From Candidatus Hadarchaeota archaeon (GTDB taxonomy: Archaea > Hadarchaeota > Hadarchaeia > Hadarchaeales > Hadarchaeaceae): 32,000 nt of DNA. Shown here piece by piece: positions 780 through 7,284 of the stretch (position 1 is the first letter of the stretch; each line of letters begins with the position of its first letter). Where the stretch lies: NCBI GenBank assembly GCA_964514965.1, contig CAZETV010000001.1, positions 963,063-995,062 of the forward strand. The letters run 5' to 3'. Both the position numbers and the translations under genes were made by a program. The notes under the pieces are model-generated. The model was not told the DNA's origin. It saw only the letters and a list, made by a program, of their open reading frames with translations, and searched no databases.

Positions 780-1604
780 TTAAGCATAAATTCTGGATTT
801 GGATATTTTTCTGGCTTCTTCCATAATTTTATTCAAACTGTCTTGAGGCAATTCTGTCATTTTTTTCAGGCGCTCAAATCCGTAGTCGAGCAGATCCTTT
901 GTCAGCATTATCCCTGCTTGAAACAATCGATCCTTCGCGAACCCCTTGACAGACCTCAAAATTGTAATAGGATAAATTTTCTTCTCCTCTATCATCCTCT
1001 CCAAGCTCTCCATTCGCGGGTGTCTCCAGCTCGTGATTTTCAAGCCGGCGCATCTTGCATACTTCCTCGCCTCACCCGTTAATTTGGTATTGCAGACCAG
1101 CCAGGCGTGGTCAAAATCATCGCCTAAATCCAAGAATCTCGCGTGGGTGTACATGGCAACTTTCAAATCGGTGTATATCCCGAGGGCGTTGTGGTACTTG
1201 CACTCCACCAGATAACGTTTGGCGTCCTTTTCCGCGACGATGTCAATCTCGTGGTCAACACACTTGCCCCGGATGACCTGCCCCACCTTGGTCTTGTAGC
1301 CGTAATTTTGAAGCAGTTCGGCGACGAACTTTTCAAAGGGGAAACCGGTGGGGCCGAGGGTCATGATCGCCCTCTTCAGGTCGTATCTGATGGCGGCTTC
1401 CGGTTCCTTTTTGAGCAGTTTGAGGGTGAGGTTCAGGACCTCTCTGGTGGTTATCCCGTCGTAGGCTCTCTTCTCGACTTCTTTCGCGATCCTATCGGCC
1501 AGCTCTCTTGATGCCCCCGCCCTCAGGCAGGTTTTCCTGACCTTTTCGACATCGAGTTCTTCTTTTTCCCCCGATGCCTTTATCACGTACATTTCGACAC
1601 TCAT
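780..1604 (-). CDS. ATP-cone domain fused to an Mrr-type (PD-(D/E)xK) restriction-endonuclease domain plus a C-terminal helical domain
   Basis: Track ORF 780..1727. I trim the start to the ATG at 1604 (MSVEMYVIKASGEKEELDVEKVRKT...), because the 41-codon extension is low-complexity and overlaps a repeat. MYVIKASGEKEELDVEKVRKTCLRAG...ITTREV matches the ATP-cone pattern. FEKFVAELLQNYGYKTKVGQVIRGKCVDHEIDIVAEKDAKRYLVECKYH matches the Mrr catalytic core (D...ExK). Confidence 0.75.
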   Translation of the reverse strand: MSVEMYVIKASGEKEELDVEKVRKTCLRAGASRELADRIAKEVEKRAYDGITTREVLNLTLKLLKKEPEAAIRYDLKRAIMTLGPTGFPFEKFVAELLQNYGYKTKVGQVIRGKCVDHEIDIVAEKDAKRYLVECKYHNALGIYTDLKVAMYTHARFLDLGDDFDHAWLVCNTKLTGEARKYARCAGLKITSWRHPRMESLERMIEEKKIYPITILRSVKGFAKDRLFQAGIMLTKDLLDYGFERLKKMTELPQDSLNKIMEEARKISKSRIYA

Positions 1605-1708
1605 GCTTACGATTTCACGCGAATGGATAAATTTTTCGCAATAGGTGTAAAAATAACTGAAATTCAAGACGCTTGAATTCAGCAGATGATGGAGATATTT
1701 AGGATGGA

Positions 1709-1745
1709 GGTACAAACCTGGGTTCAAACTCTTAATACCACACCA
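1709..1745 (+). repeat. Left copy of an imperfect ~37-bp direct repeat (GGTACAAACCTGGGTTCAAACTCTTAATACCACACCA)
   Basis: Aligns with 3402..3437 (GGTACAAATCCGGTACAAACTCTTAATATCGCACCA), 31 identical columns of 37 with one 1-nt gap by hand alignment. Each copy contains two tandem GGTACAAA-like 11-mers. An inverted GGGTACAAATCC lies at 1847..1858. Confidence 0.65.
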
Positions 1746-1778
1746 TATGCATTCTGAAGTAGTTTAGGCATTTTCAGA

Positions 1779-1798
1779 GGAGATTTCCGGAAATCTCC
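1779..1798. promoter_or_regulatory. 20-bp perfect palindrome GGAGATTTCCGGAAATCTCC, candidate operator in a divergent intergenic region
   Basis: The sequence is its own reverse complement. It lies between the divergent genes 780..1604(-) and 1980..2369(+). A 14/15 match to one arm plus centre (GGAGATTTCCCGAAA) occurs at 6877..6891. Confidence 0.5.
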
Positions 1799-1979
1799 CA
1801 GAATTTTGCTGGAAATTTTTTGGAGATAAAAAGTGGCTAAACTTCTGGATTTGTACCCACACTAATCGTTTTGAGGACCATGCATAAGTATAAATTCCTA
1901 GCCGAGAATCTACCGTTGAAAAAAGATTAATAAAACGAAAACTGTATATAGTTATTGTTGCGTATTATCTAAAGATAGT

Positions 1980-2369
1980 ATGCAAGCTGAAGAGCAGATT
2001 GTGGAGATGTTAAAGAGGATCAGCGAGGACCTCCATGCCATTAGAAGGCACACCAACCGCTTAGTTAGGGACTCCTACAGACATGAGCTAGAAAGGATTG
2101 CGAGCACCCCTGAACGTCAAGAAATATGGCGCCTATGCGATGGAACACTGAGCACCGAAGAGATAGCGAAAAGAGTGGGAATATCTGTAAGAACTGTTCA
2201 ATACTTCGTCCAAGAAGCCGAGAAGGCGGGGCTACTGGTTTCGGTAAGGAGAAGTTATTCAAGAAGAACTGAGGATTATGACGAGATTCCTTCAGAATGG
2301 AAACCGTACAAAAAGCATACATTGCCAAAAGAGGTGGCGACTGAACAATCGTTAAGGAGGGAGTTATGA
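1980..2369 (+). CDS. Helix-turn-helix DNA-binding protein (unassigned family)
   Basis: 129 aa. LSTEEIAKRVGISVRTVQYFVQEAEKAGLLV is a typical HTH/winged-helix segment, preceded by a helical N-terminus (VEMLKRISEDLHAIRRH). The stop abuts the next ATG (TGA-ATG at 2367-2372). Confidence 0.5.
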   Translation: MQAEEQIVEMLKRISEDLHAIRRHTNRLVRDSYRHELERIASTPERQEIWRLCDGTLSTEEIAKRVGISVRTVQYFVQEAEKAGLLVSVRRSYSRRTEDYDEIPSEWKPYKKHTLPKEVATEQSLRREL

Positions 2370-2741
2370 ATGAGTTTGGAAGCCAGAGATGACCAGAAGA
2401 AGGTCATTGAACTACTGAGCGAACTCGCAAAATGGACAAGGTTCGAAGGAGTTCAGAAGGCCCGCCAAGTTCTCATGGAAACTCTAAAGAAAGACTCAGA
2501 GAAGCTTGCCTATCATTATAGTGACGGACGAGGTTCAGCCGAAGTGGCTAAGCTTACTGGTATTAGTGATTTCGCGGTCAGAAGTTACTGGAAAAAGTGG
2601 GCAACACTTGGGCTAGTCGTCCCCTCTGAGAAGTTTAAGGGTAGATATAAGCGGGTTTTTTCATTGGAAGACCTTGGTATTGAACTACCTTTGAAAAAGC
2701 AGAAGGGGACAACAGAGAAAAGCCCGGAGGTGAAATTGTGA
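2370..2741 (+). CDS. Helix-turn-helix protein, paralogue-like of the preceding ORF
   Basis: 123 aa with the same layout as the preceding ORF: N-terminal helix VIELLSELAKWTRFE, then SAEVAKLTGISDFAVRSYWKKWATLGLVV. Compare xEEIAKRVGISVRTVQYFVQEAEKAGLLV in the upstream ORF. A GGAGG lies 11 nt before the following start. Confidence 0.5.
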   Translation: MSLEARDDQKKVIELLSELAKWTRFEGVQKARQVLMETLKKDSEKLAYHYSDGRGSAEVAKLTGISDFAVRSYWKKWATLGLVVPSEKFKGRYKRVFSLEDLGIELPLKKQKGTTEKSPEVKL

Positions 2742-2881
2742 TGACAAACGCCAAATCCATGTCGCAATTTGAAACATTGATGCTGGACAAGCTAGACCAA
2801 CTTATAGAGAGGTTGAATTCATACCAATTTCTCTCCCTAGAAAAATGGCTGACGCTAAGCAAATTACCGTTGACGACATAG
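2741..2881 (+). CDS. Small hypothetical ORF (46 aa), translationally coupled
   Basis: Below the track cutoff. The ATG at 2741 overlaps the upstream TGA by 1 nt (gTGATG), and GGAGG lies at 2726-2730. Translation: MTNAKSMSQFETLMLDKLDQLIERLNSYQFLSLEKWLTLSKLPLTT. Its 3' end overlaps the ATG at 2845 of the next ORF. No family recognised. Confidence 0.3.
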   Translation: MTNAKSMSQFETLMLDKLDQLIERLNSYQFLSLEKWLTLSKLPLTT

Positions 2882-3354
2882 ACTCATTCTCTAGGGTTCG
2901 GAATCAACCATCAAACCAAGATGCCATCCCTATCGATGAAAGGATGTTCAAAGAGGGATTAAAGAGAATCTTAGGAGAGGAAGGAAATTTCCAAGATTGG
3001 GGCGGAGAGTCTGATGATTTATTTTCAACACGCTTAATGATGAAAGGAGAAAGGAGGAACGTGGCCTTTGGACTAAAAGGAAAAGGAACAACAGGCATAC
3101 TCACTCCTAAGAAAATGGGAAAACGGGGCGATCAGATACAAAAGCTTTTCAGGGCACCGGCGGATGTCTTCATAGTTCAGTACTGGAATCAAATCGATGA
3201 GAGCATCATTGAGCAAATGAAAAATTTCGCCATTGCGAAATCCGTATTGGAACAGAGAAGAATCTATCATGGAGTGATTGATGGAAAAGATACCCAGCGT
3301 ATTATTGCAAATTATCCTGAGTTTTTCTTGAATGTCCAGTCTGCTACAAATTAA
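2845..3354 (+). CDS. Hypothetical protein with a restriction-endonuclease-like (Mrr/PD-(D/E)xK-type) core; family unassigned
   Basis: 169 aa. The layout FKEGLKRILGEEGNFQDWGGESDDLFS...RRNVAFGLKGKG...DVFIVQY follows the helix / acidic strand / x-x-K strand / strand order of Mrr-type nuclease cores, with GLK in place of E/QxK. Coding status is likely; the function is inferred from pattern only. Confidence 0.4.
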   Translation: MADAKQITVDDIDSFSRVRNQPSNQDAIPIDERMFKEGLKRILGEEGNFQDWGGESDDLFSTRLMMKGERRNVAFGLKGKGTTGILTPKKMGKRGDQIQKLFRAPADVFIVQYWNQIDESIIEQMKNFAIAKSVLEQRRIYHGVIDGKDTQRIIANYPEFFLNVQSATN

Positions 3355-3401
3355 ATTAATGTCAGAACGAAAGAAAGTGAGTAGGAAGATTTATTCTAGA
3401 G

Positions 3402-3437
3402 GGTACAAATCCGGTACAAACTCTTAATATCGCACCA
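3402..3437 (+). repeat. Right copy of the ~37-bp imperfect direct repeat
   Basis: GGTACAAATCCGGTACAAACTCTTAATATCGCACCA; see 1709..1745. Lies 48 nt after the stop of ORF 2845..3354. Confidence 0.65.
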
Positions 3438-3539
3438 CTTTGGTGTAGTTAACTTATCCCCTTCTTTTTTTTAACTGCTCTAAAACGAGCGGTGCCTTAG
3501 AGCCACTAGACTTGTATAAGCAAGTGATTAGCGACTTTC

Positions 3540-4365: not shown

Positions 4366-5169
4366 ATGGACAGGTTTAGAAAGTTTATCAAATTTGTCAG
4401 GCGCGAGCCTAGAAATAAAACCCATTATTCAAAACCCGAGAAAGACATTTGGCAAATTAATCTTATCAAATCAATTGAAAAAGAAGAGCGCGTGAGAATC
4501 AAACTCACTAATACATCAGTGCCCCACTATCGTTGGTTCTTTGACGAGATTCGCCTCCCACTTCGTAACATCGAAAATGCCAGCAAGAAAGATTTGCTGT
4601 CAACAACTTATCACGAAGTGGGACACGCAAAGACGAAAATAAAAAGCGTAATAGATTTTTTTGCAATCTTAATGACATCTCTTGTTTCAATCGCGTCCGC
4701 ATTTATAGCTCTAGGTATACTTGCCCTGCGTTCGTCGCCTTTTTGGGGGATGTTTATTGCGGTTTACCTCCTGATTTTGGTTCTTATCCTTCCGTTGATA
4801 ATGGTAGTAGTGTTACTCCGACCTATTAGAGGGGCTTTCGTTGGTTCGGTTATTTTCACGTTATACCTACTTATCCCAATTATTCTCGCTCCGTTCTCAT
4901 CTTTTATCGTGGTTTTCTTCAGTGCGGCGTTCTCAGCACTCTTTGCCGCATCCGTGAGGCTAAAGGACTCAGTTTCTGAATGGCGGGCTGATATTTTTGC
5001 GGCCAAGAAAATTGGTGCAGAGCGACACTTCAAAGCTAAGCCATGGTGGACAAAAGCTCGCCGCAAGAAAATTACATCGTGGCAACGTTTTTGGTTCAAA
5101 ATTTTTATGCCGTATTATGTTTGCTCGCTTGAAAAGCGGATTTCAATCATTTCGAAACACTTAAAATAA
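4366..5169 (+). CDS. Polytopic membrane metallopeptidase-like protein (M48/HtpX-like HExxH ... ExxAD arrangement)
   Basis: 267 aa. It has YHEVGHAK (HExxH), then about four hydrophobic helices, then SEWRADIFAAKKIG. That last block matches the ExxAD third-ligand helix of M48-type peptidases. Confidence 0.5.
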   Translation: MDRFRKFIKFVRREPRNKTHYSKPEKDIWQINLIKSIEKEERVRIKLTNTSVPHYRWFFDEIRLPLRNIENASKKDLLSTTYHEVGHAKTKIKSVIDFFAILMTSLVSIASAFIALGILALRSSPFWGMFIAVYLLILVLILPLIMVVVLLRPIRGAFVGSVIFTLYLLIPIILAPFSSFIVVFFSAAFSALFAASVRLKDSVSEWRADIFAAKKIGAERHFKAKPWWTKARRKKITSWQRFWFKIFMPYYVCSLEKRISIISKHLK

Positions 5170-5257
5170 ATCTGGCGGTGGAACCTCCCAGATGACTCAG
5201 CCGGAGTATCTACAATATTTTTTTCGAAAATAAACAGTAGGTCCACTAAGTTGTGCG

Positions 5258-7167: not shown

Positions 7168-7247
7168 TCTCGACCTCCGTGCGGAAGCTGAAAATTGCTT
7201 AGTCGGGCGGGATGTTTGATCCGGTTGGGGGCATCAAGATTTCCCCG

Positions 7248-7255
7248 TTATAAAG
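7248..7255 (+). promoter_or_regulatory. Putative archaeal TATA box (TTATAAAG) about 30 nt upstream of the TTG at 7285
   Basis: The box and its spacing are conserved at the paralogous locus (TTTATAAA at 10633-10640, TTG at 10671). The surrounding AACCTCCACTyAAA is also conserved. Confidence 0.4.
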
Positions 7256-7284
7256 AACCTCCACTCAAAACCTGGGCGGGTGAC

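Follow-up and report, generated by a model that had tools for sequence, protein, structure and literature searches.

Tandem accretion of tRNA-integrated elements and cis-mobilisable elements (CIMEs) are known from bacteria (Guedon et al. 2017, PMC5704250), and the ssrA islands of Dehalococcoides are a related case of tandem accretion (PMC3146451). Here we describe a locus of a Candidatus Hadarchaeota archaeon, analysed in a stretch of 32,000 nucleotides (the window) of contig CAZETV010000001.1 (C1 below), which belongs to an archaeal genome of 1.28 Mb in three contigs, 94.5% complete. Near the left end of the window, four open reading frames (ORFs) are bracketed by two direct repeats, R1 and R2. 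We think it probable that this block is a cargo cassette, a decayed operon of helix-turn-helix (HTH) and nuclease-like genes, lying in an integrase-less array that is jointed by att repeats resembling tRNA 3' ends. The array would thus be a variant of the accretion and CIMEs known from bacteria, placed in an archaeon that appears to be recombinase-less. It shares with them the stacked packets, the direct att repeats that bound them, the lack of integrases in the packets (lost or never had) and the accessory or defence cargo; an origin of the repeats in an RNA gene, at its 3' end, would be a further likeness. It differs in that the host is archaeal and its whole genome gives no tyrosine or serine recombinase match, in that the att unit is a conserved pseudo-3'-end with two GKWCAAA half-sites and does not copy any resident tRNA, and in that the copies are dispersed over C1 and a further contig, C2, with no single array behind one tRNA.

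R1 (1705-1747, plus strand; nhmmer E=3.6e-13, aligned with 25 other copies) and R2 (3398-3437, plus strand; nhmmer E=1.3e-11, together with alignments) are two copies of the same joint of ~40 nt. A previous inspection of the letters, the sequence-only reading, had placed direct repeats at 1709 and 3402, and these are real: 1709-1745 and 3402-3437 are identical at 31 of 36 positions with one indel, and a repeat finder returned direct repeats of 25 nt at 88% (D1) and 13 nt at 85% (D17). The consensus of the joint is TGGAG-GGTACAAA-N4-GGTTCAAAC-YCTTAATACC-RCACCA. With up to three mismatches allowed, the 17-mer core of the repeat is found twice where 0.14 occurrences are expected by chance, and GGTACAAA five times where 0.90 are expected, a count that none of 100 shuffles reached. 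R1 stands 235 nt 5' of the first gene, and between them lies a conserved linker of ~85 nt (1746-1830, plus strand) with the 20-bp palindrome GGAGATTTCCGGAAATCTCC at 1779-1798. The linker belongs to the repeat family and not to the cassette, and it may be a P' arm; because it comes after R1, R1 would be of the attP-like P-core-P' form. At 1847-1858, on the minus strand, the 12 nt with which the repeat opens, GGGTACAAATCC, recur in inverted orientation (I16), as had also been pointed out before, and are a perfect, 100% complement of 3401-3412. This inverted 12-mer sits where the next direct copy would be expected from comparison with a relative's locus (L124) and with C2. Flipping the 28-nt stretch 1831-1858 would restore TGGAG-GGGTACAAATCC.

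The repeat extends well beyond the window. A search of the genome with the nhmmer profile found, with E from 1e-11 to 1e-13, five full copies, of which two are in the window and the other three on C2, and a degenerate sixth copy was detected by DNA similarity on C2, at ~133.8 kb. The copies on C2 flank other accessory genes, namely a Sacsin/NOV_C pair of 223 and 834 aa and an ORF of 419 aa; they do not bound one mobile element, because the stretch that separates them holds genes for TBP, UPP synthase and an SPFH protein. In the genus, the ~40-nt unit is present in at least 8 of the 13 other genomes, often in several copies per genome, where it brackets unrelated genes, and all 13 are devoid of the two HTH genes and the 169-aa gene of our block, such that the repeats are not specific to the block. 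When 26 copies were aligned, they had ~45 nt in common, with the shared core TGGAG-GGTACAAA-tctg-GGTTCAAAC-CCCTAATACCGCACCA, and different flanks on both sides. The repeat ends in ...CGCACCA, like tRNA-Leu, tRNA-Gly and tRNA-Glu. At six loci of relatives (L106, L109, L112, L115, L116 and L118) the unit is found 38-55 nt behind the 3' end of a genuine tRNA-Leu (...CCCGCACCA), and the tRNA end and the repeat are joined there by a linker with GGAGATTTTCCGGAAATCTCC, that is, by the linker and palindrome that follow R1; the palindrome-bearing linker also separates two tandem copies on C2. Another block of ~40 nt, at 7240-7283 of the window, has more than 25 occurrences across the genus and two more in the genome under study.

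On the other side of the block, R2 runs into a different kind of sequence. Positions 3432-3472 (plus strand) hold CACCA-CTTTGGTGTAGTTAACTTATCCCC and a T run, which comparison with relatives identifies as a trailer of the tRNA-Glu type: in two of them (G013:C43 and G002:C223) the same 40 nt stand directly behind a genuine tRNA-Glu ending in ...GGGGGCACCA, at 88-93% identity. The tRNA-Glu of the genome itself (C1:236469-236546), 730 kb away, ends in GGGGGCA and has neither the CCA nor the trailer; since the trailer is instead found behind R2, a past rearrangement at the 3' end of this tRNA gene is suggested. From these sequences we read R2 as a putative attR-like P-core-B' junction (P-core-trailer), with a recombination core that would lie in or near CGCACCA and further candidate breakpoints at the CAAA half-sites.

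Immediately to the left of the block, and outside it, is a gene for a nuclease with ATP-cone, Mrr_cat and AF1548-like_C domains (780-1604, minus strand; Pfam), and the region from 780 to 1745 is a cassette in its own right. Two relatives, G007 (L017, C31) and G008 (L018, C91), share the Mrr gene with the window at 94% DNA identity, and the outer flanks of the gene are unlike one another in all three genomes. G007 departs from the window exactly after GGAGGTACAAA. At the 3' end of the gene, both relatives have the right half of the repeat (CAAACCCCTAATACCGCACCA) directly adjoining it, and the DNA that comes next is unrelated. No other record of the exact Mrr protein of the window was found. The varying flanks on both sides of the repeat, the half-sites at the ends of cassettes and the fusion of R2 to a tRNA trailer at GCACCA are signatures of recombination. 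Because the repeats are spread through the genus in genomes without the cassette genes, stand around unrelated genes and, as R2, precede a tRNA-Glu trailer, they appear to be att-type recombination joints and not operators of the HTH pair.

The arrangement could have arisen as follows. Elements bearing an attP of the form GGTACAAA-N4-GGTTCAAAC-CCCTAATAC, followed by CGCACCA and the palindrome linker, would recombine with the 3' end of tRNA genes that finish in GCACCA, by means of a recombinase supplied from elsewhere, the genome having none of its own. Repeated insertions together with internal deletions would then produce a chain of packets, in which R1 would be of the P-core-P' type and R2 of the P-core-trailer type, which is attR-like. 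The genome, at its stated completeness, gave no match to the tyrosine recombinase family PF00589, which would include XerA, or to the serine recombinase family PF00239; among the 13 other genomes of the genus, 11 have tyrosine integrases, with one to eight matches each. The first suggestion of the sequence-only reading, a small integrated cassette that lacks an integrase and is flanked by att-like repeats, is supported by the genus-wide joints resembling tRNA ends, the tRNA-Glu trailer, the absence of both recombinase families and the relatives that are integrated at RNA genes (below). The array also recalls integron cassettes, including archaeal ones, in which short, promoter-poor accessory packets lie between recurring sites and half-sites occur at the ends. 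Unlike integrons, however, there is no IntI-type integrase and no PF00589 match in the genome, the repeat has direct internal symmetry and a tRNA-like end with no attC-like palindrome, and the cassettes stand in both orientations, some of them being multi-gene operons with their own promoters.

Several observations weigh against an array of tRNA-derived joints carrying a nuclease-like operon. The body of the repeat matches no resident tRNA and no tRNA gene adjoins the array of the window; the nearest gene of the tRNA-Leu type is 10.6 kb upstream of the window and has no linker behind it. In the loci examined, no integrase was found within 1.5 kb of any copy of the repeat. No excision product, empty site or other allele was found, the only other contig with HTH1 and this locus being identical to the window. 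To these must be added the scarcity of flanking repeats among the relatives of the operon and the weak resemblance of its last product to known nucleases, both described below, and a TATA-like TTAATA within the repeat, which in nine copies is followed, ~23 nt on, by a conserved ATG.

This last feature bears on a different account of the repeat, as a mobile promoter or leader unit, or a small RNA gene derived from a tRNA, and not a recombination site. The TTAATA and the ATG that follows it (ATGGCCGGCGCA...) would fit a leaderless archaeal transcript, and the 28-nt tail of the repeat is spaced like a T-arm, an acceptor and CCA. However, the T-stem pairs at best at three of five positions and the variants show no compensation, ARAGORN and Rfam are silent on the window, such that a tRNA or other RNA gene within the repeat was rejected, and the next genes begin 175-235 nt downstream of R1 and R2. 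The varied flanks, the half-sites at cassette ends and the fusion of R2 to a foreign tRNA trailer at GCACCA, being signatures of recombination, also speak against it, and we consider this account unlikely.

Less probable still is the second proposal of the sequence-only reading, namely that the block is a self-contained nuclease module in which the GGTACAAA repeats are operators of HTH1 and HTH2 that control the operon from both ends. Each repeat does contain two GKWCAAA half-sites 11-12 nt apart, R1 lies within a divergent promoter region and the operon codes for at least two DNA-binding proteins. Against this stands the distribution in the genus already given, with repeats in at least 8 of 13 genomes and HTH1, HTH2 or the 169-aa gene in none, which does not support a role as operators of this pair. 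Moreover, the repeats flank unrelated genes and follow tRNA genes in relatives, they flank unrelated genes on C2 too, and homologous operons elsewhere do without the repeat of the window.

Returning to the block as cargo on att-type joints, its four ORFs are all on the plus strand and their junctions are as had been described. HTH1 (1980-2369, 129 aa) is a winged-HTH protein (Pfam HTH_24, E=2.2e-7); HTH2 (2370-2741, 123 aa), with weak Pfam HTH matches only, is preceded by an AGGAGG Shine-Dalgarno sequence and joined to HTH1 by TGA-ATG. An ORF of 47 aa follows (2738-2881, or 46 aa from the alternative start at 2741) across a GTGATGA junction, and overlaps by 37 nt the last ORF (2845-3354, 169 aa), which is a 5'-truncated gene whose homologous stretch begins at 2821 (2821-3354). 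The Pfam scan returned nothing for the 47-aa and 169-aa ORFs. The two HTH proteins had been taken for paralogues, and they do share 33% identity (E=0.007) over a 30-residue HTH, but resemble each other nowhere else. The G+C content of the cassette is 0.40-0.45, against 0.48 for the genome.

The sequence-only reading overlooked the 5' truncation of the last gene. The 169-aa ORF has 425 homologues, nearly all of 290-296 aa, whose C-terminal part aligns with 95% of it, such that the protein of the window aligns to residues ~131-293 of proteins of ~295 aa. With the closest relative, P0002 (79% identity), the in-frame likeness extends eight codons before the ATG (IPISLPRKMADAKQ) and then ends, and because the homology stops there, upstream of the start, we take the gene to be 5'-truncated. 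In the closest intact locus, L008, eight coupled genes code for 100, 119, 99, 109, 133, 144, 57 and 293 aa; HTH1 has its homologue there in the 133-aa protein (36% identity, E=4.5e-16) and HTH2 in the 144-aa protein (44% identity, E=2.8e-32). The window is colinear with the last four of these genes, but ~540 nt are replaced by ~80 nt, and what has been lost is the HTH gene for 57 aa and, from the start of the large gene, ~123 codons that include the winged-helix domain. The 47-aa ORF occupies this deletion scar, in the place of the ancestral HTH gene of ~57 aa, and has kept its ribosome-binding site GGAGGTGA. It had no family match in the libraries searched, and the idea that it is a remnant of a small HTH was rejected on its failure to match the small-HTH profile (E=0.14-0.22); it is probably not a conserved gene. 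Since only HTH1, HTH2, this filler ORF and a C-terminal domain remain, the ancestral function of the operon in the window has probably been lost. Decay was seen elsewhere as well: at L139 (1-1148), a metagenomic locus, the gene has an independent 5' truncation, with homology from codon 89 and a 3' end of the tRNA-Leu type facing it from downstream, and L080 holds a split copy.

Outside the genus, in which the genes of the cassette were not found, the 169-aa gene and HTH2 occur, adjacent to each other, in one of 60 relatives only (G045, of another family of the same order), and HTH1 in two other relatives. We take the cassette to be a recent insert that was acquired horizontally, its closest relatives being in contigs of the Bathyarchaeia type. 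Of the four genes, HTH1, HTH2 and the large gene do travel together and co-occur in homologous operons; the exception is the 47-aa ORF, which is without relatives.

The family of ~295-aa proteins to which the truncated gene belongs is large. Our scan of GTDB species genomes yielded 161 encoding loci in 161 species genomes of both domains of life, 80 of which were kept for analysis, and an exhaustive profile search gave 1,098 clusters at 50% identity. The kept loci come from Bathyarchaeia, Nitrososphaeria, Nanoarchaeota, Halobacteria, Thermoplasmata and many bacterial phyla, and isolates with the gene include Chryseolinea serpens DSM 24574 and Afipia sp. In length, the majority of the copies fall within 288-320 aa. 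What appeared at first sight as two copies in one genome (L047 and L048) was dismissed, as these are merely overlapping contig ends. The layout of the operon is one to seven small paralogous HTH genes followed by the ~295-aa gene: at 59 of 77 loci, one to four genes for small HTH proteins (~55-90 aa, with the motif L-x-x-IK-x-LL-x-L-x-L-x3-G-x5-IA-x2-LG) lie beside the large gene, mostly immediately upstream and overlapping. Homologues of HTH2 accompany the large gene at no fewer than nine loci (L008, L007, L026, L027, L029, L032, L037, L045 and L055), and homologues of HTH1 at least at three (L008, L026 and L027).

No larger neighbour is conserved. The 77 loci gave 97 neighbouring proteins, among which the Pfam family seen most often, Phage_integrase, appeared only three times. 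A conserved partner gene was not found, and no methyltransferase family is common to two or more of these neighbours, the sole methyltransferase noted being an N6_N4_Mtase 6.6 kb off in L150. The ~295-aa gene is therefore solitary and lacks a cognate methyltransferase, in which it agrees with the Mrr-like and wH-fusion type IV restriction enzymes. The ~295-aa protein has no match in Pfam, NCBIfam, PADLOC, PHROGs or the sequences of the PDB, and Pfam returned nothing for the longer fusion variants of the family. PADLOC gave generic HTH matches (Csa3/CasR-type) for HTH1 and a weak match of PDC-M05A to the winged helix of P0002 (E=0.0016); beyond these no component matched a catalogued system, in agreement with the previous opinion that the combination is not a described defence or toxin-antitoxin system.

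A structural model was obtained for the C-terminal domain that survives in the window (AF2; pLDDT 91.6, pTM 0.88). Its elements, H32-43, E48-50, E59-66, E69-78, H93-103 and E108-113, follow the order a-b-b-b-a-b, and in the model this order fits the core of a restriction endonuclease. Eleven positions are invariant in 73 sequences: E32, D51, W52, G54, E55, D58, R70, K78, G79, G92 and Q97. However, Gly or Ala takes the place of the acidic residue in the (D/E)xK motif (A/G-F/L-K), and Foldseek of the domain against PDB and BFVD found nothing at E<0.01. Below that threshold it aligned with MspJI (TMq 0.36), phage restriction endonucleases (0.34-0.35), an Mrr-like domain and RPB5 (TM 0.3-0.37, E 0.03-0.4). 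The domain has no match in Pfam, NCBIfam, PADLOC, PHROG or PDB sequences, and hhalign against the Mrr_cat domain of the neighbouring gene gave a probability of 0.03%, the profile being shallow. Because significant fold matches are missing, the comparison with Mrr_cat was negative and the D/E is replaced by Gly or Ala, the domain can be called nuclease-like by predicted topology only, and the nuclease fold proposed from the sequence is a putative one. The model of the full-length P0002 (pLDDT 87.7) contains an N-terminal winged helix, for which Foldseek returned TubR, Sso10a and ArsR/MarR proteins with probability 1.0 and TMt 0.6-0.7. This winged helix is fused to the C-domain in the full-length relatives and is absent from the copy of the window, whose first ~123 codons are deleted.

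The closest described enzymes are the type IV restriction enzymes with Mrr/wH fusions (Helbrecht et al. 2024, PMC11037411), to which the family is alike in its ~300 aa, its combination of a winged-helix reader with a restriction-like domain, its solitary gene with no adjacent methyltransferase and its patchy horizontal spread. Unlike them, it shows no sequence likeness or significant fold likeness to Mrr_cat, DpnI-type or other known catalytic domains, it has Gly or Ala in the acidic position, and it comes with one to seven small HTH genes, paralogues of one another, in front of it; in the copy of the window there is no winged helix at all. The small HTH genes, just upstream of a nuclease-type gene and translationally coupled to it, recall the controller (C) proteins of restriction-modification systems; in contrast to these, the HTH is of another type (an N-terminal helix and an HTH_23/sigma-r4-like motif), up to seven paralogues follow one another and a methyltransferase partner is lacking. 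By analogy, on account of the architecture like that of Mrr/wH fusions and the solitary, patchy, cross-domain distribution, the most likely role of the ~295-aa protein is that of a nuclease which targets DNA and serves defence or is selfish, and the upstream HTH proteins would control its expression or its activity.

We then compared the sites at which intact relatives are found. At two Bathyarchaeia loci, L008 and L032, the operon has an RNA gene on one side and a repeat of that gene's 3' end on the other. In L008 the RNA gene is an intron-bearing tRNA gene, and the right copy of the 29-nt direct repeat overlaps the stop codon of the 293-aa gene. At L032 a 23-nt repeat (GGCG[GT]GTTACAACCAACACACCA) at 2037-2060 and 5150-5173 surrounds an element of 3.1 kb with genes for 96, 169, 65 and 309 aa; its left copy is the 3' end of an RNase P RNA gene, recognised by means of L080 (5247-5551, RF00373). 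L007, L011 and L139 adjoin tRNA genes. Nevertheless, flanking direct repeats or tRNAs do not hold as a general trait of the family, flanking direct repeats being seen at only 2-3 of ~85 other loci, and three close archaeal loci near serine recombinases or ParA have no flanking repeat. Contigs of the Bathyarchaeia type carry other cassettes, without the ~295-aa gene, that are bracketed by repeats of the 5' part of a tRNA (L008, 2318-3504; L011, 1190-4548); one has a LAGLIDADG_3-like gene and a 23-nt repeat, and two more lie before tRNA-His, with 22-nt repeats that take in 8 nt upstream of the tRNA. Because few loci have flanking repeats and cassettes bounded by repeats exist without the ~295-aa gene, we conclude from the sequences that the operon would be cargo on different vehicles and not integration machinery. 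In some archaeal loci (L151, 3324-4184; L026, 8549-9409; L149, 1-3405) the gene is near large serine recombinases and a TFIIB gene or, as at L151 and L026, a ParA/CbiA-like gene directly follows it; in such loci the operon seems to lie inside larger plasmid- or virus-like elements.

The elements at L008 (3.4 kb) and L032 (3.1 kb) raise the converse case, in which the ~295-aa protein is the integrase or homing enzyme of a minimal element of ~3 kb that targets structured RNA genes and enters them at the 3' end, while the HTH proteins are accessory and the copy in the window is an immobilised remnant. Both repeat-bounded elements code only for HTH proteins and this protein, no more than 0-171 nt separate the end of the large gene from the right repeat, and the targets differ, a tRNA in one case and RNase P RNA in the other. 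The low frequency of flanking repeats in the family and their absence at close archaeal relatives argue to the contrary, as do the repeat-bounded cassettes without the gene on the same archaeal contigs, the genus of the window, rich in such cassettes yet without a homologue, and the loci inside larger elements with serine recombinases or ParA. We give very little credence to this case and, equally, to its wider form, that the ~295-aa protein with its array of small HTHs is a new site-specific integration machinery for ~3-kb elements at the 3' ends of tRNA and RNase P RNA genes; if it were true, the origin of the integrase-less archaeal cassette arrays could be explained too. It is just as improbable that the operon is a module for the maintenance of plasmids or other elements (partition or copy control) with the winged-helix protein as a centromere-binding adaptor, for although the N-terminal domain resembles TubR and AspA and a ParA/CbiA-like gene directly follows at L151 and L026, ParA is not among the families common to two or more of the 97 neighbours, most copies stand alone among housekeeping genes, and the invariant acidic and Lys residues of the C-domain would suggest catalysis.

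If the block is cargo in an array of att-type joints, the two joints may be read as attP-like (R1) and attR-like (R2), and as such they would be concrete substrates with which to find the missing recombinase. The block also exposes a large protein family that had no match in the annotation libraries, together with the grammar of its operon, conserved and unusual, in which paralogous mini-HTHs are followed by a winged-helix and nuclease-like protein. Being decayed, the copy in the window is of value not as a working system but for leading to this family, which behaves like a horizontally mobile defence or selfish gene.

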